This document shows, one piece after another, positions 17,095-35,615 of a DNA stretch of 64,000 nt. This DNA is from an uncultured Spirochaetota bacterium (GTDB lineage: Bacteria > Spirochaetota > Spirochaetia > SZUA-6 > Fen-1364). How positions within the stretch are numbered: the stretch's first letter is position 1; each line of letters opens with the position of its first letter. Location: positions 896,001 to 960,000 of the forward strand of contig CAWGAA010000003.1 in NCBI GenBank assembly GCA_963820525.1. Reading direction: 5' to 3'. A program made the translations under genes and the position numbers. The notes beneath the pieces were generated by a model, which was not told the origin of the DNA, did no database searches, and was given only the letters and a program-made list of their open reading frames with translations.

Positions 17095-18519
17095 TTAGTC
17101 GTCGTGAGGCAGGGAGCCTCGCGCAGCGCGCAGGTACGCGAAGGGCGTTTGCGCCAGGAAGTTGGACACCCGCGAGGTGTAGATGTCGGCGTAGCGCTCC
17201 ACCTGGCGCGCGAAAAGGCTCTTGTCGTTGCCCGCCCGCATGAGCGGGCCCCAGGTGGGGTTGCCCAGCTCTCCCGATGCCTTGGCGAGCGGCGAGATTT
17301 TCGCGTCCAGATCCTGGCTTTCCTCGTTGGCGTTTCGGATGGCCTCCTCCAGCTCCTCGGGCTTCGCCCCGAGCTTGGGACCGTACCCGTGCTGCACGCG
17401 CTGGCGGGCCAGGCGAAGCTGCGCGATCTTTGTGTCCAGCTCGGTCTTTCGGCTCATCAGATCGCGAAGCCGGGCATCGTTCTCGCGCGCTTTTTCCATC
17501 GCCATGATCTCGGGCTCGAGCTCGCGCAGGATGAGCCCCGTGCGCCAGCGCAGCATCTCCTTGCTCACGTGGACATCGCCGAAGAGGTGATCTCCGAGGT
17601 AGAGGATCTCGGCGCCCGAAAGGCCGAGGCTCGACTCCACGAGCTGGGCATCCCCACCGACGGTGACGCCGCCGGGCTCCAGCGGGCCGCGGTGCGGACG
17701 CAGGAGGCCCTGTTCCTCGTCGGTCACGCGGTAGGAGGCCTGGCGACCGGAGAAGAATCCCGGCTTGCGCGCTTCCACGATGATAAAATCGAAAAGCGCG
17801 CGCCACTTCATGGGGCCCGGCAGATAGCGGTCGAACGCGTAGCTCATCATGGACCGCGTGTACGCCCAGTCGGAGTTGGTGATCAGGAGCAGGCGCTTGC
17901 CCGCCGTCTTCTGGTCCTGAAGGGTGAGCGGGAGATCGGGGTCGAGCTCCACGAATCGATCCGGGTCCGCCATGATGAGCGGCTTGAGCTCGCTCAGGTT
18001 GTGCGCCTCGTCCAGCGCCATGCGGAGGATACGGTGCAGGTCGCGGTAGCCCAGGGTCTCGGGCAGCCGATCGGCATCCAGCATGTCCACGAGCTGCGCA
18101 AAGAGGTTCGCCTCGGACAGGGAGAACAGGGTGTTCATGAACTCCCAGCGGGGATCGTGGAGATCGACGAATGTGCGGGAGTACGCGGAGCGCTGCTCCT
18201 CGAAGGACAGCGGGCGGGTCCCGTGGTGGGCGCGGATGACGTATCCGAATCGCGTTGCCTTGACCAGGTTGCCCAGCTCCAGGTCGAAGACGAGCCCCTG
18301 GATGACGCCGGCCGGGTCGAAGGTGAGGCCGCCCACCGGCCACCCCCGCCGCTCGAGCGGCACCAGTGCGCGCTCGAAGGCGGCCCGCTCCCACACCTCG
18401 GCGCGGTAGTGCACCAGCGTGTAGTCCATATCAAAGCCCACGGCGCGGATGGCCCGCAGGTTGAGGGTACGGTTGCACCATACGCGACGCTCGGGCGGAA
18501 TGACCGTGGGAGCAAACAT
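17095..18519 (-). CDS. HAD-IG family 5'-nucleotidase (cN-II-like)
   Basis: GFDMDYTL, LITNS, ARKPGFF, YLGDHLFGD and YADIYTS motifs. Confidence 0.92.
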   Translation of the reverse strand: MFAPTVIPPERRVWCNRTLNLRAIRAVGFDMDYTLVHYRAEVWERAAFERALVPLERRGWPVGGLTFDPAGVIQGLVFDLELGNLVKATRFGYVIRAHHGTRPLSFEEQRSAYSRTFVDLHDPRWEFMNTLFSLSEANLFAQLVDMLDADRLPETLGYRDLHRILRMALDEAHNLSELKPLIMADPDRFVELDPDLPLTLQDQKTAGKRLLLITNSDWAYTRSMMSYAFDRYLPGPMKWRALFDFIIVEARKPGFFSGRQASYRVTDEEQGLLRPHRGPLEPGGVTVGGDAQLVESSLGLSGAEILYLGDHLFGDVHVSKEMLRWRTGLILRELEPEIMAMEKARENDARLRDLMSRKTELDTKIAQLRLARQRVQHGYGPKLGAKPEELEEAIRNANEESQDLDAKISPLAKASGELGNPTWGPLMRAGNDKSLFARQVERYADIYTSRVSNFLAQTPFAYLRAARGSLPHDD

Positions 18520-18598
18520 GCCTTAGAGTAGCATAATGGGGTGCGACGAGGCCACGGCGCGCCGTGGCCTCGTAACGCCGCCCGTGCGTACAATTGGC

Positions 18599-18628
18599 TT
18601 GTCAACCGGCCGGTGCCTCCTATATAAT
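18599..18628 (+). promoter_or_regulatory. Putative sigma70 promoter of the permease
   Basis: TTGTCA, 18 bp spacer, TATAAT. Confidence 0.5.
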
Positions 18629-18680
18629 GACCCTTCCATATCGTTCGTGTCGCGCAAACGCCAGGCAAAAAGGAGTGCAC

Positions 18681-20057
18681 ATGGCAGATAAAACTAACAA
18701 AGTTCTGGGGTATTTGCCGAGCGATGTGCCGCCCATCGGTTCAATGCTGAGCCTCGGCTTTCAACAGGTTCTTACCATGTTCCCGGCTACCGTAGTGGTT
18801 GCCATCCTTACAAAGTTCGACGTGGGTGTAACGCTGCTCACATCCGGGCTGGGTACGATCCTGGCTCTCCTGGTCTCGGGGCGCAGGATACCGATGTACT
18901 ACGGCTCGAGCTTCAGCTACATCAGCGTGGTCATCACCGCCATGAACGTGTACGCGAAGGAAGCCTTCTCCAACCCCAACATTTTCTACGTTCCCGAAGG
19001 GGTGAGAATCATCCAGGTCGGTATCATCGGGACGGCAGTGGTGGAAATCCTCGTCGGCCTTCTCATTATGAGGGTGGGCAAGCAAGCCCTCGACAAGGTC
19101 CTGCCACCGGTCATCACGGGCAGCGTGGCGGTGGTCATCGGTGTGGCCCTCGCGGGATCGGCCCTCGGGATGGCCTCGAACAACTGGCTCGTGGCCTTCA
19201 TAACCCTTGTCGTCACCGTCGGCTTCTCCGTGTACCTCCAGGGAAAAGGCCTTCTCGGAATGCTTCCCATCCTGTTGGGAGCCATCACGGGGTACGTCAT
19301 CTCGTGGATCTTCGGTCTGGTGAACTTCCATATTATTGCGGAAGCCGCCTGGGTTCGAGTGCCGGCCATCACCTTCCCTGCCTTTGGGGATCCCCGAGCC
19401 TGGGGTTCCATCTTGAGCATCGCCCTGATCGCCATCGCCACCATTCCCGAGAGCACGGCGCACCTCTACCAGATGAGTCTCTACATCGACGCCCTTGCGA
19501 AGGAGCTGGGAAAACCGGTGATAGAGATCAAGAAGCTGATCGGCCTCAATCTGGTTGCCGACGGCTCCGATGATCTCGTGGTGGGACTCCTCGGCGGATG
19601 CGCCGGCACCAACTACGGCGAGAACAACAGCCTCATGGCCATCACGCGCAACTACTCGGTACCGGTGCTGTTCTGCGCGGGGATCATAGCGATCCTGCTC
19701 GGCTTCATCGGCAAGCTCGCCGCCGCGGTGAACACGATCCCCGTTGCGGTGACCGGCGGTCTTGCCGTCTACCTGTTCGGCGTCATCGGCATGCAGGGCG
19801 TCGCCCTCATTCAATCGGAACGGGTCAACCTCTTCGAGCCCCGGCACCTGGCGGTGGGGGCCACGATCCTGATTCTGGGGATCGGCGGAAACCTTGCCCT
19901 CAAGGACGGGCTCTTCCCCTTCCCGATTCCGGTGATCTTCCCGAACGGCATCCCCGCTATCGTATTTTCAGCGATCGTGGGTATTCTCTTGAATCTGCTG
20001 TTCCTCATCCTGCCCGCATCCCTTTTCGGAGTGAAGGAGCGGGAAAACCTCATGTAG
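18681..20057 (+). CDS. NCS2 nucleobase:cation symporter, UraA/PyrP-like
   Basis: GSSF, PPVITG, ESTAH and the signature TNYGENNSLMAITRNYS; AAGGAG RBS. Confidence 0.9.
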   Translation: MADKTNKVLGYLPSDVPPIGSMLSLGFQQVLTMFPATVVVAILTKFDVGVTLLTSGLGTILALLVSGRRIPMYYGSSFSYISVVITAMNVYAKEAFSNPNIFYVPEGVRIIQVGIIGTAVVEILVGLLIMRVGKQALDKVLPPVITGSVAVVIGVALAGSALGMASNNWLVAFITLVVTVGFSVYLQGKGLLGMLPILLGAITGYVISWIFGLVNFHIIAEAAWVRVPAITFPAFGDPRAWGSILSIALIAIATIPESTAHLYQMSLYIDALAKELGKPVIEIKKLIGLNLVADGSDDLVVGLLGGCAGTNYGENNSLMAITRNYSVPVLFCAGIIAILLGFIGKLAAAVNTIPVAVTGGLAVYLFGVIGMQGVALIQSERVNLFEPRHLAVGATILILGIGGNLALKDGLFPFPIPVIFPNGIPAIVFSAIVGILLNLLFLILPASLFGVKERENLM

Positions 20058-20078
20058 GCCGGGCGAAAAGCGCGCACG

Positions 20079-20110
20079 AAAAAGGCCGCCCCGCAAGGGC
20101 GGCCTTTTTT
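20079..20110. terminator. Bidirectional intrinsic terminator
   Basis: AAAAA-GGCCGCCC-CGCAA-GGGCGGCC-TTTTTT between convergent genes. Confidence 0.9.
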
Positions 20111-20699
20111 ATGTCGGCTGTTCTTTCAGGAGCGCCCGGGAGAGATCCGCGAGGGGATATATCTGCCCGCTTTCAGGGTCGAAAACGTTTCCATCGTTTC
20201 CACAATAGTAGAGCTTCATCCACTTCTCGACAGCTCCCCGGATCCGCTGCCCGGCCTTGGCCTCCTTCTCCCGCTCCTGGCGGTAGCGGCGAAGGATAAA
20301 GCGCCTCCCCACGAGGTATGCCGCGAGAGCGAGTGCGAGCACCCCCTCCGCGGGGACGAGACCCCACGGCTGGCTGCGGAGCATCTGGAAGAGCACGAGT
20401 CCCGAAATTGCGGCGAACCCAAGAACCACGGCATCGGGGTGAAGCAGTCGCGTGACCTTGCTTTCGCCCGAGGGAGGAGCGGCCATTCGCGCGATTTCGC
20501 GGTAGTAGCGGGAACGGCCGAAGAGGCGGGTTTTCTGCCCTTCGCCCCTCTGCAGAAAGGAAAGGGATTGAGGAATGGGCTGTTCGGGATGGGCGATTAT
20601 CGAGAGGGCATCGAAGTAGATTCTGCTGAGCTTCGCGACCCGATCCCGTCCGCCGCAGGAGGCGCAGGGAGGGATCTGCTCTTTCGCCTGATCGCTCAA
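20109..20699 (-). CDS. Hypothetical membrane protein with an N-terminal CxxC
   Basis: CASC, two TM segments and C-terminal YYCGND. Confidence 0.65.
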   Translation of the reverse strand: MSDQAKEQIPPCASCGGRDRVAKLSRIYFDALSIIAHPEQPIPQSLSFLQRGEGQKTRLFGRSRYYREIARMAAPPSGESKVTRLLHPDAVVLGFAAISGLVLFQMLRSQPWGLVPAEGVLALALAAYLVGRRFILRRYRQEREKEAKAGQRIRGAVEKWMKLYYCGNDGNVFDPESGQIYPLADLSRALLKEQPT

Positions 20700-20711
20700 T
20701 GCCGGACCCTG

Positions 20712-20969
20712 CTACACCGCGAAGCTCAGGACGACGAATCCCAGGGTGACCGGAATCCACCAGTAGGTCTTCAGCAAGGGGGATAGGTTCAGGGCTATAA
20801 AAAGGGCTCCCGCGCAGACTAAAACGATGCCGAGCGCGAGGAAAGTCCAGTTCTTGATCGGATTGGATTTCGTCTCGGAGCGTGCTATGCGGCGCTGCGC
20901 CAAGGTCAGGCGGGTGTAGAATATCAGGGCTCCGATAATGGCTGCCACGATTCCGATATCGAGCTTCAT
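20712..20969 (-). CDS. Small hypothetical membrane protein
   Basis: Three hydrophobic segments; GGGAG RBS. Confidence 0.6.
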   Translation of the reverse strand: MKLDIGIVAAIIGALIFYTRLTLAQRRIARSETKSNPIKNWTFLALGIVLVCAGALFIALNLSPLLKTYWWIPVTLGFVVLSFAV

Positions 20970-20999
20970 GCGGCTCCCTATGTACCACAAAAACACCCA

Positions 21000-21875
21000 T
21001 CACGCAACCGTAAAGCCCGGACGCTCCCTCATCATCCAACAGAAACCCGCGAGGGAGTCGGTGCCTGACGTCTCCCCATGGGAACAGGCGGAATCGACCG
21101 CTTCCGCTATTTCATTCTCCGCTGTCGCGCCTGCAAGCCGCTCGACGAACACGCACAGATAGGAAGGGAAGCTTCCCCTCAGGGCCAGCCAGAGCAGCGT
21201 CCGCCCCGCGGGAGTCGTCCCGGGCAGGGAAGCCTCGATTCTCGCAATATCGATGTCGGGCGCGACAGATCCGTGGGCAAGACCGGCGGACCCGGCAAGG
21301 AGAACGCCGGCCAGGAAATCGTCTCCCGCAGGGGTCATACCGGGTCCAAGACCGACGAGCGCCGCCGGCCCACCCATAGCCAGAGCGCGCATCGCCTGCT
21401 TCACATACGCGTTTTGAAAATGCCCCGTGGAGAGCACGCCGAGCAATCCGCCTGGCTTTCCCCCGCGGGAAAGGGTCTGCTCCACGAGGAGTGCCTTCTC
21501 TCCTGAGACAAGGCGCACCGATTCAGGTCTGACAGCGCCTGACCATACTTCACTCAAGGGGAGCGTGATGGGCGCGAGCTCCGATATGAGCAGGCTCGCG
21601 TGTCTGCATACCGCCGGGCGGCCCACAAGAGCCTGGAGGCTTTGCCCGGCGAGCTGCGTGTGCTCGAACACGGACGCGGCGAGGATGCTCATGGCCGTCA
21701 TCGAGCCTACCGCTGCGACCAGGGAAACGAGAAGGCCGTCTTCGCGGACGATATTGAGCGCGCCCGGATGTACGGAGACGACCTTGCCTGACCATGGTCC
21801 GATACCGAGAAAAGCCCCTCGGACAAGGGCTCGATACGTCCGCTGCGGGAGCGCGACTGTCCTCAAATCCGTCAT
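21000..21875 (-). CDS. DUF2877 protein (YlbF/YahE/AllH-like)
   Basis: GLGPGMTPAGDDFLAG and GETSGTD signature motifs. Confidence 0.85.
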   Translation of the reverse strand: MTDLRTVALPQRTYRALVRGAFLGIGPWSGKVVSVHPGALNIVREDGLLVSLVAAVGSMTAMSILAASVFEHTQLAGQSLQALVGRPAVCRHASLLISELAPITLPLSEVWSGAVRPESVRLVSGEKALLVEQTLSRGGKPGGLLGVLSTGHFQNAYVKQAMRALAMGGPAALVGLGPGMTPAGDDFLAGVLLAGSAGLAHGSVAPDIDIARIEASLPGTTPAGRTLLWLALRGSFPSYLCVFVERLAGATAENEIAEAVDSACSHGETSGTDSLAGFCWMMRERPGFTVA

Positions 21876-22054
21876 TCGAATCCCTCGCAATAATACTGGT
21901 TGAGAATGGAAGACCGCAACCCTCACTCCACACAAAAATCCTTGCGTGATTAGTGCTTTGCATATATAATCATTTTTCCTCGCATGGGTTGCAGAAAAAA
22001 GTCAATCGCACACTACAGGCGCTTCGGTCCGCTACACCGCAAAGGAGGAAGTGG

Positions 22055-22894
22055 ATGATTCGATCCTGTGCATATGTCAAACCGCGCGGGTTGGATGAGG
22101 CGTTCGCGGCCCAGCGGCAGGAAGGAGCGCGGCTTCTCGCCGGAGGGACCGATCTTCTGGTCGACATGCGCAAGGGGCTCGAATCCGCCGGACTCCTCGT
22201 GGACACGAAGGGTCTCGAAGAGCTGGACGTGCTCACAATCCATTCGGGGCGGGACGCGACAATCGGCGGAAGGATCACCTTGGATGCCCTTATCGAGGAC
22301 GCGCGGATCCGCGAGATCTTTCCCGTCATCACGGACGCGGCCCAGACCGTCGCTACCTATCAGCTTCGAAACCGCGCGACCCTCGTCGGCAATATCTGTA
22401 ACGCCTCTCCCGCCGCCGACATGGCGCCCCCCCTCTACGTGCTCGCCGCCGAGGTCCTGATCGCCGGGCCCGGGGGCCGGCGGACACTACCGATTCGGGA
22501 GTTCATCACCGGCGTGAAGAAAACCGCGCTCGAGAAAACGGAGCTCGTCATCGGGGTGAAAATTCCGAACCCGGGCTCTGCGCGGACGGCCTTCATGAAG
22601 AAGCAAAGAATCCGGGGGCATGACCTCGCCTCCGTCAACGTCGCGGGGCTTGCGGACAAGGCGGCCGGGATCTTGAGGATCTGCGTAGGAGCCTGCGCCC
22701 CCACCCCGGTTCTCCTGGAGGGAACCGACGAGCTGTACCGCAAGGCCGGGGGGGTCGAAGCGCTGGCGGATCAGGTGGCCGCCCTCGCTCTGAAATCCAT
22801 TGCGCCCATAGACGACGTTCGCTCCTCCGCCGAGTACAGGCGGGACATGGTCCAGGTCTTCGTGAAGCGAATCGTGCGGGCGATCTGTTCCTGA
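22055..22894 (+). CDS. Xanthine dehydrogenase family FAD-binding subunit
   Basis: AGGTDL, QLRNRATLVGN, SPAAD and PIDDVRSSAEYR motifs. Confidence 0.93.
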   Translation: MIRSCAYVKPRGLDEAFAAQRQEGARLLAGGTDLLVDMRKGLESAGLLVDTKGLEELDVLTIHSGRDATIGGRITLDALIEDARIREIFPVITDAAQTVATYQLRNRATLVGNICNASPAADMAPPLYVLAAEVLIAGPGGRRTLPIREFITGVKKTALEKTELVIGVKIPNPGSARTAFMKKQRIRGHDLASVNVAGLADKAAGILRICVGACAPTPVLLEGTDELYRKAGGVEALADQVAALALKSIAPIDDVRSSAEYRRDMVQVFVKRIVRAICS

Positions 22895-22907
22895 GGAGGC
22901 GGACGAA

Positions 22908-23390
22908 ATGGCGGAATATCCAACAGCAATGCAGATTTCACTGACGGTGAACGGAGCGCGCTACACCGAAACCGTTCCCGCCAACATGACGCTATTGCAG
23001 TTCCTCAAGGAGAAGCTCCAACTGTCGGGAACCAAGGAAGGGTGCGGGATCGGGGAGTGCGGGGCGTGCACCGTCATCATGGACGGCAAGCCCGTGGACT
23101 CCTGCCTCGTGCTCGCCGCGGAGGCGGACGGATCCGCCATCCGGACCATCGAGGGGGAAGCGAAGAACGGAGAGCTCTCCGAGCTTCAGAAGGCCTTCCT
23201 CGAGCACGGCGCCGTGCAGTGCGGTTTCTGCACGCCGGGCATGATCATGGCGGCCCAGAGCCTCCTCGAGCACAATCCGAATCCGTCGCGCGAACAGATC
23301 GTGGAATCGATCGCGGGCAACCTCTGCAGGTGCACCGGCTACGAGCCCGTCGTGCGGGCCATCGAAGCCGTGGCGAAGAAGCGGGGATGA
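22908..23390 (+). CDS. Xanthine dehydrogenase family 2Fe-2S subunit
   Basis: GCGIGECGAC, QCGFCTPG and NLCRCTGY motifs. Confidence 0.95.
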   Translation: MAEYPTAMQISLTVNGARYTETVPANMTLLQFLKEKLQLSGTKEGCGIGECGACTVIMDGKPVDSCLVLAAEADGSAIRTIEGEAKNGELSELQKAFLEHGAVQCGFCTPGMIMAAQSLLEHNPNPSREQIVESIAGNLCRCTGYEPVVRAIEAVAKKRG

Positions 23391-23401
23391 GGGAGGCGGG
23401 C

Positions 23402-25777
23402 ATGGGCAGCGAGGAAAAAGAATATACGTATATCGGGAAGGGAATCCCCCGCAAAGACGGCGTCGAGAAGGTGACGGGGAGCGCGCTCTTCACCCACGAC
23501 ATGGTTGTCCAGGGGATGCTCTACGCCAAGACCGTCGTCTCCCCGCACGCATCGGCGCGCATCACGCGCATCGACACGAGCGGTGCGGAAAACATTCCCG
23601 GCGTCCGCGCCGTCCTTACGGGAAAAGAGCTTGCGTACAAGGTCGGGCTCTACATGGTGGACAAGGACATCCTGGCAAAGGAGTTCGTCCGTTACCAGGG
23701 GGAGCCGGTGGCAGCGGTTGCGGCAGACTCCGAGCTCATCGCAGAGGAGGCATGCCGGAGGATCAGGATCGAATACAAGGTCATGAAAGCGGTGCTCGAC
23801 CCGAGGGAGGCCATGAAGCCAGGCGCGCCTCTGGTCCACCCCGATCTGGGCAGCTACGCCTGCATGAAGGGCGTCTTTTTCCCGCGCGCGGGAACGAACA
23901 TCCCGCACCTCCAGAAGATCAGGAAGGGAGACGTGGAGGAAGGCTTCAAGAAGGCGGATTCCGTTTTCGAAAACTCCTTCTACAACCCGCCGGTCCAGCA
24001 CGTTGCGCTGGAGACCCATGTCAGCATCGTGCAGGCCCTTCCGGGCGACAAAGTGATCGTTTGGAGCTCCGCGCAGTCCCCGTTCACGGTGAGAAGTCTC
24101 TTCTCCCTCTGCTTTGGAATACCCCTGGAGAACATCCGGGTCAAAGTCCCTTACGTCGGCGGCGGATTCGGCGGGAAAGCGGGGATCCACCTCGAGCCGC
24201 TCTGCTACGTGCTTTCCAAAAAGGCGGGGGGAAGACCGGTGAAGCTCACCATGACGCGGGAGGAGGAGTTCAACACCATGCCCTCGCGCCAGGGCCTGTT
24301 CTCACAGTTCAAGACGGGCGTGACAAAGGAGGGGAAGCTCACAGCGCTGGAGGTGACCTACTATTGGGACGCCGGAGCATACGCGGATTACGGGGTCAAT
24401 ATCGGGCGGGCCGGCGCATACGCGGGCGCCGGGCCGTACGAGCTTCCGGCCTGTAAAATAGACTCCTACATCGTGTACACGAACAAGGTGTTCGGCACCG
24501 CGTATCGCGGGTTCGGCCACCTCGAGGTTCTCTGGGGCATCGAGCGGAACATGGACATCATTGCGCGGCAGCTCAAGATGGATCCCGTGGAGTTCCGTCT
24601 GAAGAACGTCCTCAGGCCGGGGGCCACCACGATCACGGGAGAGAAGATCCGTGACTACTACGGGAAGGTGGACAAGTGCCTGGAGGCGGTGGCCCGGGAG
24701 ATCGGGTGGCACGGACCGAAGAGCGATGAGGAAAGGCGGCAGGGGAGGAAAAGCGGCAAGGCTCGCGGAATCGGCGTGGCCCTGCTCCACAAGGCCCCCG
24801 CCATGCCCACCTTCACCTCGTGCGCCGTGGTATTGAAGTTCAATGAGAACGGATCTGTGGACCTTCTCACCTCTCTGGTGGACTTCGGACAGGGCACCTA
24901 CACGGCGCTGGCCCAGATCGCGGCAGAAGAGCTCAAGATTCCCGTGGAGAAGGTCAACGTTCCATGGGATAGCGACACCTCCTTCACGCCGTACGACTGG
25001 CAAACCGTGGCGAGCAAGGGGTCCTTCATGGCGGGAAACGCGACCATTCTCGCCGCGGCCGATTGCATTACCCAGATCAAGCAGACCGCCGCGCAGGTGC
25101 TGCGCTGCACTCCGGAAGAGCTGGAATGCAAGGACGAGCGGGTGTTCCTCCGTCACAATCATGAGGCCTTCCTTTCGTACCGGCAGGTCATCACGGGGTA
25201 CACGTACCCTAATGGCAACTCCATCGGCGGACCCGTCATCGGCAGGGGAAACTACATCGCCCAGGGCCTCACGAACCTGGACCCGGAAACAGGCCAGGGG
25301 CTGCCCGCCCTTGACTGGACCTACGGGGCGCACGCGGTGGAGCTCGAGGTGGACACGGAAACCGGGGAGATCGAGCTTTTAAAAATATGCTCGGCGTTCG
25401 ACGCGGGCAAGGTCCTCAACAGCGACATCGTGAAGGGCCAGATCATCGGCGGGGTGGTCCAGGGCCTGGGAAGCGCGATGATCGAGGAGTTCCGCTTCGA
25501 CGGCGAAGGCCGCTTCCTGAATCCCACTTTTGTCGACTACAAGATTTTCACCTCCAAGGACATCCCCCGGGAGATGACCCAGACGATAATCGAGACGGCC
25601 CAGGTGGACGGACCCTATGGGGCGCGCGGAGTGGCGGAGCATCCTATGATCTCGGTCCCCTCGGCCGTGGGCAATGCCCTCTACGACGCGCTGGGCATCG
25701 ATTTCTTCCGCCTGCCCCTGAGCTCCGAGCGGGTCTATTTGGGGCTCAAGAGCGGGGAAAAGGAATTTCACGAGTAA
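23402..25777 (+). CDS. Xanthine dehydrogenase family molybdopterin-binding subunit
   Basis: GGGFGGK, AYRGFG, GQG, GQIIGG..QG and GVAE motifs; GGAGG RBS. Confidence 0.95.
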   Translation: MGSEEKEYTYIGKGIPRKDGVEKVTGSALFTHDMVVQGMLYAKTVVSPHASARITRIDTSGAENIPGVRAVLTGKELAYKVGLYMVDKDILAKEFVRYQGEPVAAVAADSELIAEEACRRIRIEYKVMKAVLDPREAMKPGAPLVHPDLGSYACMKGVFFPRAGTNIPHLQKIRKGDVEEGFKKADSVFENSFYNPPVQHVALETHVSIVQALPGDKVIVWSSAQSPFTVRSLFSLCFGIPLENIRVKVPYVGGGFGGKAGIHLEPLCYVLSKKAGGRPVKLTMTREEEFNTMPSRQGLFSQFKTGVTKEGKLTALEVTYYWDAGAYADYGVNIGRAGAYAGAGPYELPACKIDSYIVYTNKVFGTAYRGFGHLEVLWGIERNMDIIARQLKMDPVEFRLKNVLRPGATTITGEKIRDYYGKVDKCLEAVAREIGWHGPKSDEERRQGRKSGKARGIGVALLHKAPAMPTFTSCAVVLKFNENGSVDLLTSLVDFGQGTYTALAQIAAEELKIPVEKVNVPWDSDTSFTPYDWQTVASKGSFMAGNATILAAADCITQIKQTAAQVLRCTPEELECKDERVFLRHNHEAFLSYRQVITGYTYPNGNSIGGPVIGRGNYIAQGLTNLDPETGQGLPALDWTYGAHAVELEVDTETGEIELLKICSAFDAGKVLNSDIVKGQIIGGVVQGLGSAMIEEFRFDGEGRFLNPTFVDYKIFTSKDIPREMTQTIIETAQVDGPYGARGVAEHPMISVPSAVGNALYDALGIDFFRLPLSSERVYLGLKSGEKEFHE

Positions 25778-25783
25778 AGCCGG

Positions 25784-27349
25784 ATGGAGGACCAGGTGAA
25801 AAAGGTATTCGTGGAGAAGGACTCGTACCACGATTCGGTCTTCCTCATGCTGACAAGCAAAGAGGTCAAGGGTTTCCACGGGGTCAGCGAGGCGGTCGTC
25901 GTCATGGCCACCGAAATGAATCTCGATCTCCTGTCAAGGTTGGGATTCGCCGCCTCCGAAACCGAGGGCGCGACGCCGAACGACCTTGTCATCGGGGTGA
26001 TCGGGGATTCAGAGGAGACGGTGTCCGGTGCGATTCTTGCCGCCCGGCAACTGCTCGGTCGGAAAAGGAGCGAGACCGCTGGAAAGGGCGAGCGTCGTCC
26101 CGCGAGTCTCGATGCGGCGCTCCGCGAGGTACCGGAGGCGAACCTCGCCGTCATCTCGCTCCCCGGAGAGTATGCGGCCCGAGAAGCTTACAAGGCCCTT
26201 CGAAGGGGCCTTCACGTGATGCTCTTTTCTGACAATGTATCCATCGAGGATGAGATACGCCTGAAGAAGCTGGCTTGCGAAGAGGGCCTCCTGGTCATGG
26301 GGCCCGACTGTGGAACGGCGATACTCAACGGAAAACCGATCTGCTTCGCGAACGTGGTCCGGCGCGGAAACATCGGCGTCGTGGCTGCGGCGGGAACCGG
26401 CCTCCAGGAGATCACCTGCTGCATCGACAGGCTCGGGGGCGGGATCTCGCAGGCGATCGGAACGGGCGGCCGGGATTGCGCCGACGTCAGGGTGGGCGGC
26501 GCGACCATGCTGATGGGCATCGAGGCCCTGTCGAGAGATCCCGGCACCGCAGTGATCGCGGTCGTCTCCAAACCCCCGGCCGCGGAGGTCGCCGAGAGGG
26601 TCCTCGAAGCACTGGGCCGGTCGGGCAAACCGAGCGTGGTCGATTTCATCGGGATGAGAGGGCGCAAGGGAACCGAGACCCTCTCCTTTGCGGAAAGCCT
26701 GGAAGAGGCGGCGGGCATGGCCGTGGCATCCTCCTCGGGAAAAGCCTACACGCCTCACACATTCGATCTCTCCAAGACTGAGGTCGCGCGCCTGATCCGC
26801 AGGGAGACTTCATCGATGGCGAAGAGCCAGAGGTTCCTTCGAGGGTTGTTCACGGGAGGCACGCTGGCCGACGAGGCGCTGTACCTCCTCGATGAGGAGC
26901 TGGGCGGGATCCATTCCAACGTTCAGAAGAAGAAGGCCTTGATTCTGAAAGACCCCCGCTCCTCGCGGGGGCACACCATCGTGGACCTCGGCGACGACGC
27001 GTTCACCGTGGGCCGTCCCCACCCCATGATCGATCCATCGCTGCGCGAAGAACGCATCGCGAGGGAGGCCGAAGACCCCGAGGTTGCAGTCCTGCTGCTC
27101 GACGTCGTGCTCGGCTACGGTTCCCACCCGAATCCGGCAGGAGCCGTGATCGAGTGCGTGAAAAAGGCGAAGTCCGCGGCGGCATCTCGAGGCGGATACC
27201 TCGCCGTCATCGCATCGATCACCGGCACCGCGGGGGATTTCCAGGACATGGCCGCCCAAAGGCTGATTCTGGAACAAGCGGGATGCGTGGTCATGCCCTC
27301 GAACTGCCAGGCCGCGATGCTCAGCCTGAAGATCCTCACGGGAAGGTGA
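25784..27349 (+). CDS. fdrA: FdrA/YahF family CoA-ligase-fold protein (AllF-like)
   Basis: YHDSVFLM, FSDNV, MGPDCGT, GTGGRD, GGTL and GRPHPMIDP motifs. Confidence 0.9.
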   Translation: MEDQVKKVFVEKDSYHDSVFLMLTSKEVKGFHGVSEAVVVMATEMNLDLLSRLGFAASETEGATPNDLVIGVIGDSEETVSGAILAARQLLGRKRSETAGKGERRPASLDAALREVPEANLAVISLPGEYAAREAYKALRRGLHVMLFSDNVSIEDEIRLKKLACEEGLLVMGPDCGTAILNGKPICFANVVRRGNIGVVAAAGTGLQEITCCIDRLGGGISQAIGTGGRDCADVRVGGATMLMGIEALSRDPGTAVIAVVSKPPAAEVAERVLEALGRSGKPSVVDFIGMRGRKGTETLSFAESLEEAAGMAVASSSGKAYTPHTFDLSKTEVARLIRRETSSMAKSQRFLRGLFTGGTLADEALYLLDEELGGIHSNVQKKKALILKDPRSSRGHTIVDLGDDAFTVGRPHPMIDPSLREERIAREAEDPEVAVLLLDVVLGYGSHPNPAGAVIECVKKAKSAAASRGGYLAVIASITGTAGDFQDMAAQRLILEQAGCVVMPSNCQAAMLSLKILTGR

Positions 27350-27356
27350 TGCTGCT

Positions 27357-28784
27357 ATGAACGTCGGGAAGGTCAACGAGCTGTTCCGTAGCGGGCTGTC
27401 CGTGGTCAACATGGGACTGGACGGGTTCGCGGAGGATCTCGCGCGCCAGGGGGTTCGGGTGGTCAGGGTCGACTGGAAGCCGCCTGCGGGAGGGAACAGG
27501 CGCATCGCGGAGATTCTTTTGCGGCTCGATGCGGGCGCGAGCGCGGACATCCGTTCGGCGAACGAGGAGGCGGCGGGGCGCATCCTGAAAGGCAGGCCGA
27601 CGCTGATCGACATCGGCCGTGCCCTCGATGTCATCCCCGCAATGAGCAGGAAGACCGTTCTTCACGCGGGACCGCCGGTGAGCTGGCAGCGGATGTGCGG
27701 CCCCATGAAGGGAGCCGTCATCGGGGGGCTCCTCTACGAAGGGCTCGCGTCCACGCGGGAAGAGGCCGAGAGACTGGCCTCCTCCGGCGGGATCGAGCTC
27801 AGCCCGTGCCACCATCACTCCAGCGTCGGTCCCATGGCCGGGGTCGTGACGGCCGGCATGCCCGTGTGGGTGATGGAGAACAGGACCTACGGAAACCGGG
27901 CCTACTGTACGTTGAACGAGGGGTTGGGCAGGGCCCTCCGCTATGGGGCATTTTCCGAGGAGGTGATCGCGCGGTTGAAGTGGATGGAAACCGAGCTCGC
28001 CCCCATTCTCAAGAAGGCGCTGGCTCTCCACGGCGAGCTCGACATGAAGAACCTGATCGCGCAGGTGCTCCAGATGGGAGACGAAGGCCACAACAGAAAC
28101 CGGGCGGGCACGTCCCTGTTCATCCGCGAGATGGCCCCCCATCTGGCGATGCTGGGCGAGGATCCCGAGAAGATCGCACGGGTGTTCAGGTTCATGAACG
28201 GCAACGATCACTTCTTCCTCAACCTCTCGATGCCGTCCTGCAAGTGCACGGCGGACGCGGCGGCGAACATCCCCGGCAGCTCCGTGATCGTGACCATGGC
28301 GAGGAACGGCACCGACTTCGGAATCCGCGTATCCGGACTGGGAGATGAGTGGTTCACCGGCCCGGCCTCGATGGTGGACGGCCTCTACCTTCCCGGCTTC
28401 ACCGCCGCCGACGCGGCGCCCGACATTGGGGATTCCGTGATCACCGAGACCTGCGGGATCGGGGGTTTCGCCATGGCAGCGGCGCCCGCCATCGTCAAGT
28501 TCGTCGGGGGAAAACCCGAGGATGCCCTGAACATCACGCGCCGCATGTACGAGATCACCCTCACGGAGAACGACACCTATCGGATCCCCGCGCTGGATTT
28601 CCGCGGCACTCCCACGGCCATCGACCTGCTGAAGGTGGTGGAAACCGGCATCCTTCCCGCCATCAACACGGGGATCGCGCACAAGGAACCGGGGATCGGC
28701 ATGGTGGGCGCCGGGCTGGTGAAGCCCCCCGTGAAGTGTTTCCACGACGCCGTAGAGGCGTTTGCCCGGAGATACGCCCGATAG
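27357..28784 (+). CDS. DUF1116 protein (YlbE/YahG/AllG-like)
   Basis: LHAGPP, GPMAG, MGDEGHNRN, NDHFFLN, DIGDS and INTGIAH motifs. Confidence 0.9.
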   Translation: MNVGKVNELFRSGLSVVNMGLDGFAEDLARQGVRVVRVDWKPPAGGNRRIAEILLRLDAGASADIRSANEEAAGRILKGRPTLIDIGRALDVIPAMSRKTVLHAGPPVSWQRMCGPMKGAVIGGLLYEGLASTREEAERLASSGGIELSPCHHHSSVGPMAGVVTAGMPVWVMENRTYGNRAYCTLNEGLGRALRYGAFSEEVIARLKWMETELAPILKKALALHGELDMKNLIAQVLQMGDEGHNRNRAGTSLFIREMAPHLAMLGEDPEKIARVFRFMNGNDHFFLNLSMPSCKCTADAAANIPGSSVIVTMARNGTDFGIRVSGLGDEWFTGPASMVDGLYLPGFTAADAAPDIGDSVITETCGIGGFAMAAAPAIVKFVGGKPEDALNITRRMYEITLTENDTYRIPALDFRGTPTAIDLLKVVETGILPAINTGIAHKEPGIGMVGAGLVKPPVKCFHDAVEAFARRYAR

Positions 28785-28834
28785 GGGCGCCGGCGCCTCG
28801 CCCGGCGTCGGTCCCAAGAAAAGGAGGCAGCACA

Positions 28835-29717
28835 ATGAAGTTCGTCGATCTCACGATCCCCCTCGGCATCGGGACTCCCCCATGGCCCACGTATATCCCT
28901 CTCCAGGTGCAGTATTTCAAGCGGCAGGCGCCGAACGGCGCCAACGGGCAGGTGGTCACCCACTCCAACCACGTGGGGCACCCACCTCGACGGGGAGATC
29001 CACTTCTACACCCCGGGCAAGGACATCGCCAGCCTCTCCCTCGATTTCCTCGTCCACGAAGGCGCGGTGGTGGATCTCTCGGACTGCGCGGCGGACTACG
29101 ACGTGTACACCTCGCGTCAGGTCGAGGAGCGGGTCGAGGTGAGGGAGGGCGACATCCTCATCATCCACACCGGTTTCCATCACTACGGATGGGACCAGCC
29201 GACCGCGGACGAGGTCCGCTACATGGTGAAGCACCCGGGACCGGACCGCGAGTTCGCCGAGTGGGCGAAGCGGAAGAAGCTGCGGTGGATCGGGGTGGAC
29301 TGCGGGAGCGCGGACCATCCCATGAACACGAAGATCCGCGAGTGGATGCCCCGGGAGGCGGCGGAGTGCGACGCCCACTTCAAGAAGAGCTTCGGGAAGG
29401 GCTTGAAGGAGTTCTTCAGCGACGACAAGTACCAGCTCATGCACATCGAGATGTTCAACAAGGGCCTCATCCACGCGGAGTGCGTGGGAGGGGACATCGA
29501 TCTCCTCCTCAACACGCGTTGCACCGTGGGGTGCTTTCCCTGGCGCTTCGTGGACGGCGAGTCGTGCATTTCCCGGATCGTAGCCATGGTGGAGGATAGC
29601 CGCTACGAGGAGCTGATGAAGAAAAAGGCGAAGGCAAAGCTCACGAAGTTCGGGGACGTCGCCGGCGCCGAGAATCCCTGGCTTCACGACGAGGCGAAAA
29701 AACGCGGGAGAACCTAG
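28835..29717 (+). CDS. Cyclase family metal amidohydrolase (kynurenine formamidase-like) with an apparent +1 frameshift near 28977
   Basis: MKFVDLTIP...HSNHVG joins THLDGEIHF after removing one G from GTGGGGCACC, which restores the HxGTHxD motif. HTG and GVDCGSADHP follow. Confidence 0.85.
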
Positions 29718-29747
29718 CCTCGCGACATCAAAGGCACGGAGGGAATC

Positions 29748-30443
29748 ATGGCAATCGACGAGATGGAAAAAAAACTGCGGCCGCCCGAGCTCGAGATGAA
29801 GGGCTATCCGCCCAAGGTGATCACCCTGGCGAGCGGGCAGAAGATGGTGGTGCGCGAGGCCAAGAGAAGCGAGATCGGCGTTCTCCTGGGCTCGATCTAT
29901 CCCCTCCTGGGCGCGCCCAAGGATTTCTACGATCTGGTCGCCGCGCGGATCTATGGAGAGCTCCTCTCATGGTACCGTTACCGCGTGGTGAACGAGTTCG
30001 TTCTGGTGGGCGCCATTGACGGGGTCGTGGCCGGGATGGTAAACAGCAGGATGGTCGACGCGCGGATCGGCATGAGCTACCACACCATCGCGATCGAGCG
30101 GGGCCTGCGGGTCGGGGCGCAACTGTTCGCCGCGAAGATGGAGCACCACCTGGAGATACTGCAGCAGGAAGAGGTGTGGATCGTGGCGGAAAGCCCGATC
30201 GGGTTCAAGAGGTGGATGATCGAGTACGAGCTTGAAAACCGCGAAAGCCAATTTCCCGCGGTCCGCCACGAGCTGGGCGGAGTCCCCACCTACGTGTTGA
30301 CCCGCACGCTCTACGACGCGGTGAGGAGCCAGAAAGTGACCGGCACCCGCCCCGTGGATCCGGCCGTGCTCGCCACCGCCGACAAGCTGAAGCTGCCCGA
30401 GGAGTACCCGCAGCTTCCCGGCTACAAGAGGGAGAAATCATGA
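29748..30443 (+). CDS. GNAT-fold protein with malonyl-CoA-decarboxylase-like motifs
   Basis: RGLRVG CoA-binding-like loop and ESPIGFKRW; sits in the operon with ATGA coupling to the thiolase. Confidence 0.6.
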   Translation: MAIDEMEKKLRPPELEMKGYPPKVITLASGQKMVVREAKRSEIGVLLGSIYPLLGAPKDFYDLVAARIYGELLSWYRYRVVNEFVLVGAIDGVVAGMVNSRMVDARIGMSYHTIAIERGLRVGAQLFAAKMEHHLEILQQEEVWIVAESPIGFKRWMIEYELENRESQFPAVRHELGGVPTYVLTRTLYDAVRSQKVTGTRPVDPAVLATADKLKLPEEYPQLPGYKREKS

Positions 30444-31651
30444 GACGGGTGGCGATCGTCGGAATCGGCCACACCGTGTTCGGCAACTTGAGCGATTTCG
30501 ATCTCGTCGACGTGTTGAGCTTCGCCTCCGCCAACGCCCTGGAGGACGCAGGGATCCTCGAGGAGCGCGGGATCGTGGATCAGGTGATCGTGGCGAACAT
30601 GGGGGCGGGGATCCTCAACCACCAGACCGGGATCGCATCGTCCCTGGTGAGCAGGATGGGCATGGAGCCTGCCATGGCGGAGCTGGTGGAGAACGGCCCT
30701 GCCAGCGGCGCGAGCGCCGTGAAGATGGGATTCATGGCCGTGGCGAGCGGGATGGCAGATCTCGTCATGGTCACCGGCGGCGAGCTCATGCGGACGGTGA
30801 CGGGCTGGGAGGCCACGGACTTCGTCTCCACGCTCCTCCATCCCGAAGCCGAGTATCACCTCGGCCTCACGCTTCCGGCGTTCGGCGGTATGTTCACGCG
30901 CATGTACATGGAGCGCTACGGCGTCACCGAGCGGGAGCTGGCGATGATAGCCGTGAAGGACCACGACAACGGGGCGAAAAACCCCTTCGCGCACGTGAGG
31001 ATACCCGTGACCCTCGACGCGATCCACGACAACGAGAACGCGAACGTCGTGAACAACCCGGTGGCAGAGCCCCTCCGTCTCTACGGCATGTGTCCCGTGT
31101 CGGACGGGGCCGCCACGGTGATCCTCTGCGCCGTCGATTCTCCCAAGATGAAGCGCTTCACGAAAAAGCCGCCGATCTACGTCACGGGAATCGGATCCGC
31201 TACCGACACGCACTGCGTCCACAACCGAAAGGACCCGCTGACGCTCGACGCGGTGCGCCTTGCGGCCGAGCGCGCGTACACGATGGCACGGATTGGACCG
31301 AAGGACATCTCCTTCGCCGAGCTCCACGACGCATTCGTGATTCTCGAGCTTGCCATCGGCGAAGAGGTGGGCCTCTTCGAACGCGGGAAGGCCCGCGCGG
31401 CCCTCGTGGCCGGAGAGACGAGGCTCGAGGGAAGGATCCCCATCAACACATCCGGCGGCTTGAAGGCCAAGGGCCACCCCGTGGGCGCCACGGGCGTGTC
31501 CCAAGTCTTCGAACTCGCGAAGCAGCTCCGAGGCGACGCGAAGAAGGAAGAGAGGCAGGTGAAGGACCCACGGCACGGGCTCGCCGTCAATTTCGGCGGA
31601 TTCGGCAACAACGTGGTCGCGATCATCTGCTCGAAGGAGCCGACATGGTAG
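30440..31651 (+). CDS. SCP-x/archaeal-type thiolase-fold protein lacking the nucleophilic Cys
   Basis: VENGPASG (Cys site is Pro), PVSDGAA, ELHDAF, INTSGG and GHPVGATG motifs. Confidence 0.88.
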   Translation: MRRVAIVGIGHTVFGNLSDFDLVDVLSFASANALEDAGILEERGIVDQVIVANMGAGILNHQTGIASSLVSRMGMEPAMAELVENGPASGASAVKMGFMAVASGMADLVMVTGGELMRTVTGWEATDFVSTLLHPEAEYHLGLTLPAFGGMFTRMYMERYGVTERELAMIAVKDHDNGAKNPFAHVRIPVTLDAIHDNENANVVNNPVAEPLRLYGMCPVSDGAATVILCAVDSPKMKRFTKKPPIYVTGIGSATDTHCVHNRKDPLTLDAVRLAAERAYTMARIGPKDISFAELHDAFVILELAIGEEVGLFERGKARAALVAGETRLEGRIPINTSGGLKAKGHPVGATGVSQVFELAKQLRGDAKKEERQVKDPRHGLAVNFGGFGNNVVAIICSKEPTW

Positions 31652-32037
31652 ACTTCAGCATGTACGATCAGCCCGAGCCCGAGGTGCTCGCGAGCAAGTG
31701 CCCTTCGTGCGGAACCCTCTACTACCCGGCGCCGATGGTGTGCGGGAAGTGCAGCACGAGAAGGGATCCCTCGGGCGTGATCTTCTCCACGTGGGACACG
31801 GTGGGGATGGAAGGGAAGTGCAGGCTCCTCGCGTGGACGAGGGTGTATGCCCTCCCCGAGGGCTACGATGTGAAGTACCTCCTCTTCGGCATCGTGGAGC
31901 TCGAGAACGGCCTCCGCGCCAGCGGAAGGCTCCTGGTGGACGCGCCCGTCACAGGCATGGAGCTCGTCGCGAAACCGGGGTTGGTGAAAAAGAAGGGCGA
32001 GAAGGAGTATTACGGCCTCTTTTTCGATAAGCCCTGA
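31645..32037 (+). CDS. DUF35 Zn-ribbon/OB-fold protein
   Basis: CPSC and CGKC zinc ribbon, GIVELENG OB-fold; overlaps the thiolase stop codon. Confidence 0.88.
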   Translation: MVDFSMYDQPEPEVLASKCPSCGTLYYPAPMVCGKCSTRRDPSGVIFSTWDTVGMEGKCRLLAWTRVYALPEGYDVKYLLFGIVELENGLRASGRLLVDAPVTGMELVAKPGLVKKKGEKEYYGLFFDKP

Positions 32038-32209
32038 TAGCCTGCCCCTGCGCCGCCTGCTCATGTATACGTTTTGAATTTCGCCGATTCTCATACCGTG
32101 CGCCATGCCGAGAGCGTATCCTGCACGTGGGTTTATGCTGGCGTACCGGCTACTTGCGCCGACCCGGCACGCAGGTATACGCTCCCTATCGGGGACGGGA
32201 GCGATCAAA

Positions 32210-33364: not shown

Positions 33365-33384
33365 AAGCGGTAATGGCAGGCAAA

Positions 33385-34292
33385 CTATGATTTGGATATG
33401 CCAGTTGCGGAAGAGAGCGTTTCTTTGACGATTTTCATGAATGCTTCTAAGATGGGAGGATGCCATTTATTCTTCAAATGGATCATTATCATATTCGCGC
33501 TCAAAGGCCCTTTTTCAAAAGGAAGCTCCACGAGCAACCCATTCGCTATTTCCTCGCGCACGGCAATCTTTGGAAGAAGGGCTGCCCCGTTGCCCGCAGA
33601 AACGTTTTGCTTTATTGCTTCAATGCTATTGATATGGTAGAGAGTCGAAAATTTGATCTTTTCGTCTATAAAAAGACCTTCCAGAATATTGAAATAGCTG
33701 CAATCACTAGAAGTCACAAAGATGGGCTCTTTTCTTAATTCCATAACCTGTACGCAGGATTTTGCTGCAATTGGATTATCCGGGTAGGTAGTCATCACTA
33801 AGGGAATCTCCATTAAAACATGCGTCTCCAAATCAACATTCCTGAAATCCTTGGCTATCAAAAATGCGAGATTTATTATTCCGGAACGCAGTTCCTCGGG
33901 CAACCCATAATAAGAACAGGAATTAAAATGGAAATCAACGTGAGGGAAGCGACCCTGAAATATCTTAAGAATGGAGGCAAATAGTACGTGATGATGGTTT
34001 CAGGAATTCTGATCGATAGCGACCCATGAATTTCTTCGCTTCCTTGTATTTCAGTCCGTACCTCTTCTTCAAGATTTATCATTTTTTGTGCGTATTGCAA
34101 AAAAAGCTCACCGGCAGGCGTGAGAGTAATATGCTTTCCATCTCTATTGAATAGTTTCACATTCAAATCTGCTTCAAGTGCCTTGATCTGCTCGGATACA
34201 GTTGATTGGGCGTAATCAAGCAAGTCCGCGGCTTGATTGAAGCTTCCAAGCGTTGCTATCGCTCTAAAGGTATATAGTTGCCTTAAGTCCAT
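33385..34292 (-). pseudogene. LysR family regulator, frameshifted near 33954
   Basis: HTH SFNQAA..YAQSTVSEQIKALE. One missing G in AGGGT joins it to RFPHVDF...LPEELRSG (ORF 33385-33903). Confidence 0.85.
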
Positions 34293-34434
34293 AGTGATAG
34301 CTCACCATCCGGGCATGGGCACCATCTATATTATATCGGAAATTCCGATAAAAGCTATCGTATTCAGCTTATTGACGCGGTTTTTCCGAATGGGTTAAGG
34401 TGGGCATGGCATCAACAATTCAAGGAGATGGAAC

Positions 34435-35598: not shown

Positions 35599-35615
35599 AT
35601 AACTCAGGAGGCGTA

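Follow-up and report, generated by a model that had tools for sequence, protein, structure and literature searches.

What is encoded when a molybdenum (Mo) hydroxylase, an FdrA/AllG/AllH-type enzyme and a thiolase that lacks its catalytic cysteine stand in one gene cluster? The question is raised by a locus in an uncultured Spirochaetota bacterium (assembly GCA_963820525.1, contig CAWGAA010000003.1), of which a stretch of 64,000 nucleotides (positions 896,001–960,000), hereafter the window, was analyzed. The locus belongs to a real, widespread and undescribed catabolic cluster. We read the conserved cluster as an oxygen-independent, energy-conserving oxidative pathway for a pyrimidine, most likely uracil or thymine, and give this reading a probability of about 0.55. 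The genes of the cluster, in window positions, are:

18594..20057, plus strand, probable ATG at 18678: UraA-like NCS2 nucleobase:cation symporter (PF00860, 194.5 bits)
21000..21935, minus strand, divergent from the main run: AllH/DUF2877-like subunit (PF11392 AllH, 66.8 bits)
21953..22894, plus strand: FAD-binding subunit of the Mo-hydroxylase (PF00941, PF03450; all NCBIfam equivalogs below cut-off)
22908..23390, plus strand: [2Fe-2S] (FeS) subunit of the Mo-hydroxylase (PF01799, PF00111)
23387..25777, plus strand: molybdopterin subunit of the Mo-hydroxylase, 796 aa from an ATG that overlaps the FeS stop codon (PF01315, PF02738, PF20256)
25784..27349, plus strand: FdrA/AllF-like subunit, similar to the succinyl-CoA synthetase alpha subunit (NF004760 FdrA, above cut-off)
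27357..28784, plus strand: AllG/DUF1116-like subunit (PF06545, 337 bits)
28835..29717, plus strand: PF04199 'cyclase', a metal-dependent hydrolase, frameshifted here (PF04199 on the C-terminal part)
29748..30443, plus strand: p231, a 231-aa GNAT-fold protein (no Pfam or NCBIfam family; fold from structure)
30440..31651, plus strand: thiolase-fold protein of the archaeal/SCP-x type, with Pro87 in place of the nucleophilic Cys (PF22691, PF00108)
31648..32037, plus strand: DUF35/zf-ChsH2 OB-fold protein with a four-Cys zinc ribbon (PF12172)

The original prediction had described these components as a tightly coupled run with DUF2877 divergent from it. Pfam and NCBIfam searches recover every component in its place, with AllH (21000–21935) on the minus strand, and 'tightly coupled' is apt because the junctions of the main run are 4-nt overlaps or gaps of 6–50 nt. 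A drop in G+C content, from about 0.64 to about 0.50, sets in immediately past DUF35 and delimits the unit. The 5.05-Mb, four-contig genome (96.7% complete) has a single copy of the cluster. The prediction also knew of no characterized pathway with this gene set; full-text literature searches, with subscription-only papers outside their coverage, likewise gave no paper on the cluster.

Conservation of the cluster

A scan of species-representative genomes anchored on p231 gave 317 loci, of which 80 were kept; genes were counted by tblastn with the window proteins together with clustering of open reading frames (ORFs). According to the contig titles, the loci come from Spirochaetota, Verrucomicrobiota, Kiritimatiellia, Caldisericota, Desulfovibrionaceae, Terriglobia, Lentisphaerae and Anaeromyxobacter. 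p231 and the thiolase are present in all 80 loci and DUF35 in 76, always adjacent to one another (the trio). Directly 5´ of the trio, in a fixed order, lies a block of FdrA (45 loci), AllG (46) and the cyclase (50). The Mo, FAD and FeS subunits were counted in 38, 37 and 36 loci and the permease in 29; AllH is found in 27 loci by tblastn, and the AllH-family ORF cluster spans 39. Chance does not explain the arrangement, as dozens of loci, labeled with several different phyla, repeat this gene order. Judged from the taxon labels, the carriers of the cluster appear to be anaerobes.

Single full operons are present in Sphaerochaeta sp. PS (locus L080) and in a metagenome-assembled genome (MAG) of Gracilinema caldarium (L060). 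The order in both is FdrA-AllG fusion, cyclase, p231, thiolase, DUF35, GntR/FCD regulator, AllH, (carbamate kinase), FAD, FeS, Mo and NCS2 permease. A GntR gene stands 3´ of DUF35 in 29 of the 51 block-bearing loci.

The other 29 loci carry the trio without the FdrA/cyclase block. In 18 of them a nitrilase-superfamily hydrolase is encoded at most 1.4 kb from p231, which is the case in none of the 51 block-bearing loci. Fourteen of these hydrolases are amidase-like and transcribed divergently; their nearest relatives form a generic branch to which N-carbamoyl amidohydrolases, formamidase and Nit2 belong. The remaining four are true-nitrilase-like and are preceded by a monocarboxylate symporter of the DUF485/ActP-MctC type and a GntR regulator; they form a compact unit of GntR (divergent; not detected in L019), DUF485, ActP/MctC-like symporter, nitrilase-like enzyme and trio (L027, L046, L071 and L019), carried by a delta-proteobacterial MAG, two Terriglobia MAGs and a Desulfovibrionaceae MAG. 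This unit suggests the uptake of a cyano- or amido-monocarboxylate. Among the remaining 11 loci, six end less than 600 nt upstream of p231 and are not judgeable, three (L051, L006 and L047) have the trio with unrelated neighbors, and two (L014 and L020) hold only 1.9–3.3 kb upstream of the trio, with nothing related therein. In the window's own genome, tblastn found no CN_hydrolase of the linked types near the cluster. The company that the trio keeps in these loci indicates that it is a self-contained module and carries on from a step in which an amide or nitrile is handled.

Conservation was also followed from the cyclase. Among 301 genomes sampled from the window's phylum, the cyclase is present in 19, p231 in 18 and both in 17. 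The two cyclase-only genomes (G110 and G288, each 99% complete) have the same FAD-FeS-Mo-permease-AllH-FdrA-AllG-cyclase operon, with a family III coenzyme A (CoA)-transferase and an amidase-signature enzyme directly 3´ of the cyclase, in the place of the trio. A cyclase-anchored metagenome scan gave 569 relatives, of which 80 were kept; FdrA/AllG lies just upstream in 65 of the 80, and the downstream side is judgeable in 53 of the 65. The trio follows the cyclase in 14 of these 53 loci. A CoA-transferase and/or an amidase-signature enzyme follows in 5 (with a more distant amidase-like gene in 2 more), AllH and then the end of the operon in 9, a cytosine-deaminase-like Amidohydro_3 gene with a Bmp/PnrA-type ABC transporter in 6, a CN_hydrolase in 1 and nothing recognizable in 12; 4 loci continue with GntR, AllH, Mo and so on, with no trio in reach. 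These counts identify FdrA-AllG-cyclase, with AllH and the Mo enzyme, as the core, and the trio as one of several endings. The proposed co-occurrence of the genes thus stands for the trio, adjacent in 76 to 80 of the 80 p231-anchored loci, and for the block 5´ of it in 45 to 50; what does not stand is an obligatory trio.

The trio of p231, Cys-less thiolase and DUF35

p231 has no match to any Pfam family at E ≤ 0.01 or any NCBIfam model at E ≤ 0.001, the GNAT models included. An AlphaFold2 (AF2) model built on 33 sequences has a mean pLDDT (predicted local distance difference test score) of 92.5. The top Foldseek matches of this model are all GNATs (E 1e-6, probability 1.00 to many). An exhaustive VIA-align search gave the best Z score, 13.6, to 1YRE (PA3270 with CoA), with a root-mean-square deviation of 3.1 over 162 residues, and 201 chains at Z ≥ 8 with a sequence identity of only 6–16%; an atlas look-up returned the same GNAT label. 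The GNAT fold that had been assigned to p231 is therefore confirmed at the level of the predicted model. The family is narrow and very strongly conserved, since its 2662 homologues (E ≤ 1e-3) collapse to 160 representatives at 50% clustering and the best 120 share 72–92% identity.

The closest structures of the thiolase-fold protein in the Protein Data Bank (PDB) are the archaeal thiolases 7YVY (E 1e-73) and 6ESQ (8e-70). In the alignment with 7YVY, the window sequence VENGPASG stands against IEAACASG, and Pro87 takes the position of the nucleophilic Cys. All 24 sequences of an alignment share Pro87, and 71 of 72 full-length homologues carry the motif [VI]ENGPASG, so the description of the protein as Cys-less also proved right. 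By its sequence, the protein cannot act as a thiolase, because the nucleophilic Cys is replaced by this invariant Pro. Sequence-based annotation (NCBIfam) files it as acetyl-CoA acetyltransferase-type. In DUF35, the four cysteines C18, C21, C32 and C35 are invariant. The trio is probably a three-protein enzyme built around the Cys-less thiolase, and this putative complex is the most interesting part of the cluster.

FdrA, AllG and AllH point to cleavage of an acyl-urea

The FdrA subunit scores 512.5 bits on NF004760, above the cut-off of 433, and its closest structure is E. coli FdrA (3DMY, E 9e-89). AllG is closest to 3CLQ, an uncharacterized protein (E 9e-135), and both AllG and AllH are above the Pfam cut-offs. 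FdrA and AllG are fused in a single ORF of 1023–1044 aa in Sphaerochaeta sp. PS (L080:6012-9083) and in the Gracilinema caldarium MAG (L060:5926-9060), which supports the idea that the two act as one enzyme. A phosphohistidine-type H[AS]G motif, as in succinyl-CoA synthetase, was sought in FdrA and not found. The chemistry of FdrA need not follow that of succinyl-CoA synthetase, because this motif is absent, and a phosphohistidine mechanism is not supported for the same reason.

Purified E. coli AllFGH interconverts oxalurate plus Pi and oxamate plus carbamoyl phosphate, and the AllFGH genes are co-transcribed with a catabolic carbamate kinase, AllK (PMC11326118). Of the 80 related loci, 10 have a carbamate kinase gene at a distance of at most 6 kb. 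Such a linkage is consistent with an enzyme that, like AllFGH, releases carbamoyl phosphate from an acyl-urea by phosphorolysis.

The same family supplies the starting point of a rival explanation, in which a purine-derived or other ureide is degraded via oxalurate, FdrA/AllG/AllH is a true oxamate carbamoyltransferase and the downstream genes convert oxamate to oxalate and oxalyl-CoA. Oxalurate is the substrate of the only characterized FdrA/AllG/AllH enzyme (PMC11326118). Against this rival, the cluster contains no enzyme set that leads from purines to oxalurate, and across the genome both allantoinase (274.9 bits, cut-off 357.85) and AllD (338.5 bits, cut-off 496.2) stay below their cut-offs, in agreement with the earlier statement that no allantoin genes are present. 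The permeases and the enzymes that replace the trio, described below, bear on it further.

The Mo-hydroxylase, the permease and the identity of the ring

The best NCBIfam match of the Mo subunit is XdhA, at 512 bits against a cut-off of 780; for the window's Mo-hydroxylase, XdhB (168.6 versus 310) and XdhC (197.4 versus 217) are likewise below their cut-offs. The nearest structure is the alpha subunit of 4-hydroxybenzoyl-CoA reductase (E 1e-103), followed by CoxL-like enzymes, 6-hydroxypseudooxynicotine dehydrogenase and quinoline oxidoreductase. The subunit has the motifs GGGFGGKA, YRGFG and AEHP, and its active-site positions were placed by motif and not by structure alignment. Relative to the xanthine oxidase residues (bovine Glu802, Arg880 and Glu1261), the window's Mo subunit has Ala at the purine-binding Glu and keeps the Arg and the catalytic Glu. 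With the nearest relatives being 4-hydroxybenzoyl-CoA reductase and CoxL-like enzymes, and no equivalog cut-off passed, the substrate of the Mo enzyme is one that we infer.

The permease gives a more definite indication. The window protein is far closer to UraA (E 1e-43) than to the xanthine/urate carrier UapA (3e-12), which bears out its earlier description as UraA-type, and its best NCBIfam model is the uracil permease NF007995, at 213 bits (below the cut-off of 477), against 131.7 for the xanthine model pbuX. Of the 26 linked permeases, 22 are better matched by the uracil-permease model than by the xanthine one; 3 of the 26, with 548–588 bits, clear the equivalog cut-off for uracil permease. 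This preference speaks against the route via oxalurate, to which the other 4 permeases, of the xanthine-leaning type, would be suited. In 6 metagenome loci, a cytosine-deaminase-like Amidohydro_3 gene and a Bmp/PnrA-type ABC transporter lie 3´ of the cyclase; the Amidohydro_3 gene is best on cytosine-deaminase subfamily models (260–265 bits, cut-off 438).

The permease could also reflect a merely related substrate, and the ring could be another N-heterocycle with an acyl-urea or amide, such as a substituted pyrimidine, a hydantoin derivative or a pyridine. The Mo subunit would suit such a ring, as it falls in no characterized equivalog and its nearest relatives are the four types of enzyme named above. 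Moreover, the Mo subunits encoded at the related loci form groups of about 75%, 54% and 42% identity, compared with 70–90% for the cyclase and p231, which suggests several entry substrates. We regard another heterocycle as unlikely, since three linked permeases lie above the uracil-permease equivalog cut-off, a cytosine-deaminase-like gene is found in six loci, and the carbamate kinase linkage requires a ureido group.

Enzymes of other pyrimidine routes were sought as well. The AtzD/barbiturase family (PF09663) has no match in the 96.7%-complete genome, and this model is silent in 14 of 14 control genomes too. No PF01425 amidase-signature protein of the ureidomalonase type is present among the window ORFs scanned at 13.5–37.3 kb, and uridine phosphorylase (TIGR01718) has no match in the genome. 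The genome holds two further Mo-hydroxylase gene sets (C1:1221261-1227796 and C1:2252593-2272137). The second adjoins a dihydropyrimidinase/D-hydantoinase equivalog (556.7 bits, cut-off 393.25); this set may be another N-heterocycle pathway, and the organism may thus own another route for such rings.

Replacement of the trio points to malonamate

The enzymes that take the place of the trio in the cyclase-only genomes give an indication of its role. The replacing amidase is matched best in the PDB by malonamidase E2, which accounts for the first 8 distinct sequences (E 7e-52), ahead of a 'probable amidase' (8e-44) and GatA (1e-32); in NCBIfam it has only generic amidase matches, below cut-off. 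The replacing CoA-transferase is closest to enzymes for dicarboxylates, namely YfdE, formyl-CoA transferase and succinate-hydroxymethylglutarate CoA-transferase in the PDB, and CoA:oxalate (388 bits, cut-off 522), succinyl-CoA:mesaconate and succinate-glutarate CoA-transferases in NCBIfam, all below cut-off. Malonamidase E2 hydrolyzes malonamate to malonate. Most simply, the reaction that comes after the cyclase block would start from malonamate and end in a CoA ester, and the trio would do the same job; malonamate is suggested as the intermediate because a malonamidase-E2-like amidase and a dicarboxylate CoA-transferase replace the trio. In the window's genome, tblastn with the G288 proteins found no family III CoA-transferase, and the amidase gave only partial matches on other contigs, which leaves the trio as the sole candidate for the malonamate step.

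The oxalurate rival draws on the same CoA-transferase, whose best matches are the CoA:oxalate CoA-transferase model and YfdE, and is countered by the amidase, which is nearest to malonamidase E2 and not to an oxamate amidase. Taken with the permeases and the allantoin genes, these data make oxalurate an improbable intermediate. The conversion of a malonyl unit to a CoA ester, as proposed in the original prediction, is upheld by the replacement and weakened by the occurrence of the trio with nitrilase-superfamily hydrolases and no Mo enzyme.

The break in the cyclase is probably an assembly error

The cyclase carries a +1 frameshift, overlooked in the original prediction, in the GGGG run at 28972–28975, inside the HxGTHxD metal motif. 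The N-terminal 46 codons are in frame 2 and the C-terminal part is in frame 0; the motif HSNHVG|THLDGEIH is present and split at this point. PF04199 scores 50.4 bits on the C-terminal part in the window and 107 bits on the intact homologue in L080, and kynurenine formamidase is a weak match in the PDB (E 2e-8). The homologues in the related loci are 76–91% identical, with a second type at 49–51%.

The site was compared with contigs of four public metagenome runs, three of which gave covering contigs. All five covering contigs (one in run X1, one in X2 and three in X3) have one base fewer at 28972–28975. A LysR-family regulator gene nearby (33385–34292, minus strand) is also split into two overlapping ORFs, the helix-turn-helix part at 33876–34292 and the substrate domain at 33385–33903; it appears to be a second frameshift, in keeping with indel errors in the assembly. 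The break is probably an assembly error, since five of five contigs from three other runs lack the extra base; on this evidence it is read as such an error or as a strain-specific lesion, and not as evidence of a dead pathway. A decaying pseudogene cluster would account for a frameshift in a metal-binding motif, and for a cluster that has no regulator or carbamate kinase of its own here. The absence of the extra base from the other runs, the position of the break within a homopolymer, the split LysR gene and the fact that all other cluster genes are intact and highly conserved make decay very unlikely.

Two further contexts of the cyclase family were observed. In five metagenome loci (L149, L152, L154, L159 and L160), a subfamily of about 75% identity occurs without FdrA/AllG; the genes next downstream encode an unknown protein of 127 aa and a member of the proline dehydrogenase family. 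At L150:4267-7820, pyrimidine biosynthesis genes, namely a dihydroorotase gene and a fused pyrF-pyrE, stand downstream of a cyclase homologue that is not accompanied by FdrA/AllG.

Proposed pathway

In the scheme that we propose, every substrate and reaction is deduced from gene content, those of the ring-opening enzyme and the trio included. The UraA-like permease would import uracil, perhaps thymine, and the three-subunit Mo-hydroxylase would oxidize uracil to barbiturate with water as the oxygen donor. The PF04199 metal hydrolase would open the barbiturate ring to ureidomalonate. FdrA/AllG/AllH, a presumed paralogue of the E. coli oxamate carbamoyltransferase, would by analogy phosphorolyze ureidomalonate to carbamoyl phosphate and malonamate. 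Carbamate kinase would then convert carbamoyl phosphate to ATP, CO2 and NH3. The trio would convert malonamate to a CoA thioester, either malonyl-CoA or, after decarboxylation, acetyl-CoA, a role that in other lineages would fall to the malonamidase-like amidase and the CoA-transferase.

For the trio itself, we offer a doubtful but specific proposal: a new kind of enzyme complex that would turn unactivated malonamate into acetyl-CoA, CO2 and NH3 without ATP. The GNAT subunit would run an N-acyltransferase reaction in reverse, from amide and CoA to acyl-CoA and NH3. The thiolase-fold subunit, with Pro for the nucleophile, would decarboxylate malonyl-CoA and so pull the unfavorable first step; Cys-substituted ketosynthases decarboxylate malonyl-CoA in polyketide loading. 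DUF35 would scaffold and channel, as it does in the archaeal thiolase/HMG-CoA synthase complex. If this holds, the trio and carbamate kinase together would make uracil fermentable, with up to two ATP by substrate-level phosphorylation.

Several observations weigh against the pyrimidine pathway. In this genome, the one carbamate kinase above cut-off lies about 820 kb from the cluster, no GntR/FCD regulator was found near the cluster by tblastn, and the cyclase reads as frameshifted. The Mo subunit is below every equivalog cut-off and nearest to 4-hydroxybenzoyl-CoA reductase and then CoxL-like enzymes, 4 of the 26 linked permeases favor the xanthine model, and the dihydropyrimidinase equivalog stands beside another Mo-hydroxylase set. 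In the cyclase-anchored census, the trio follows in only 14 of the 53 loci, in addition to the 9 in which AllH ends the operon and the 12 with nothing recognizable. The best named relative of the replacing CoA-transferase acts on oxalate and not on malonate. Finally, the trio beside nitrilase-superfamily hydrolases without a Mo enzyme is covered only by the extra assumption that those hydrolases, too, are a source of malonamate or a similar amide. The pyrimidine scheme as first predicted is partly supported; the uracil-type permeases (22 of 26) and the linked carbamate kinases (10 of 80) speak for it, and the affinities of the Mo subunit do little to identify the substrate.

Comparison with known systems

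The cluster shares with E. coli AllFGH/AllK the FdrA, AllG/PF06545 and AllH/PF11392 families, a carbamate kinase that is linked in some relatives and, presumably, the phosphorolysis of an N-acyl-urea to carbamoyl phosphate. In E. coli, however, the kinase gene is in the operon beside the allantoin genes allECD; here the allantoin genes are absent and the kinase is about 820 kb away. The present system also differs in its gene neighbors (a Mo-hydroxylase, a cyclase-family hydrolase and the trio), in the FdrA-AllG fusion of some carriers and in its presumed substrate, ureidomalonate, which is one CH2 longer. The amide product is a dead end in E. coli (PMC11326118), whereas here it appears to be processed further.

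The classical oxidative pyrimidine pathway of Rhodococcus and related bacteria (Soong et al.) proceeds through uracil/thymine dehydrogenase, barbiturase and ureidomalonase and ends in urea and malonate (PMC3758960). The proposed barbiturate, ureidomalonate and malonyl end product would be common to both. In contrast to the classical pathway, no match to the AtzD/barbiturase family was found in the genome, with the model that is also silent in the control genomes, and the cluster has no ureidomalonase-type amidase; the ureido group would be released as carbamoyl phosphate, from which ATP would be gained, instead of urea.

The trio resembles the archaeal acetoacetyl-CoA thiolase/HMG-CoA synthase/DUF35 complex (PDB 6ESQ and 6ET9) in having the closest thiolases and a DUF35 zinc-ribbon partner. 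It differs in the invariant Pro for Cys, in a putative third partner with a GNAT fold instead of HMG-CoA synthase and in its catabolic context. Malonamidase E2 and the family III dicarboxylate CoA-transferases take the position of the trio in G110, G288 and about 5 metagenome loci and probably do an equivalent job; in sequence and fold they are unrelated to the trio, and the window's cluster has no homologue of them. The reductive anaerobic uric-acid pathway (PMC12507026) was also considered as an explanation and set aside, as the paper mentions no FdrA, cyclase, thiolase or oxamate.

Surroundings of the cluster

The permease gene is adjoined by one further gene of nucleotide metabolism:

17095..18519, minus strand: HAD-IG 5'-nucleotidase (PF05761, 447.6 bits; TIGR02244 above cut-off)

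This enzyme is a possible feeder for the cluster; a homologue was found by tblastn in none of the 80 related loci. Between the permease and AllH, the ORF at 20173–21039 (minus strand) was rejected as spurious, being of low complexity, with no family and no homologue in the 80 loci. The 943-bp gap at 20058–21000 has no similarity by blastx to the ORFs of the 80 related loci, and an Rfam scan of 14–36 kb at gathering thresholds, which covers this gap, gave no match.

The composition of the window is a mosaic, in which the G+C content falls from about 0.62–0.65 to about 0.50 in the blocks 32001–38000, 6001–14000 and 44001–52000. A beta-lactamase/penicillin-binding-protein-family gene (32105–33364) lies at the start of the first of these blocks and has a homologue in none of the 80 related loci. 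On the other side of the cluster, a 401-aa ORF (15742–16947, minus strand) has a FliN C-terminal match and weak FliM matches and stands beside a Crp-family regulator and a Cache-PAS-GGDEF protein. No RNA run is listed among 20 public sequencing runs that contain the stretch.

Implications

To our knowledge, no gene has been assigned to the first step of the oxidative pyrimidine pathway. The pathway has been known biochemically since the 1950s and is regarded as rare (PMC3758960). If our reading is true, the cluster would supply candidate genes for a widespread, oxygen-free and ATP-yielding version of it in Spirochaetota, Verrucomicrobiota, Caldisericota and others, and the newly discovered AllFGH transcarbamylase class would gain a second substrate. 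A function would likewise be given to a strongly conserved trio that is annotated as a thiolase despite the missing catalytic cysteine. The replacement of this trio by a malonamidase-like amidase and a CoA-transferase turns its role into a concrete, testable hypothesis.

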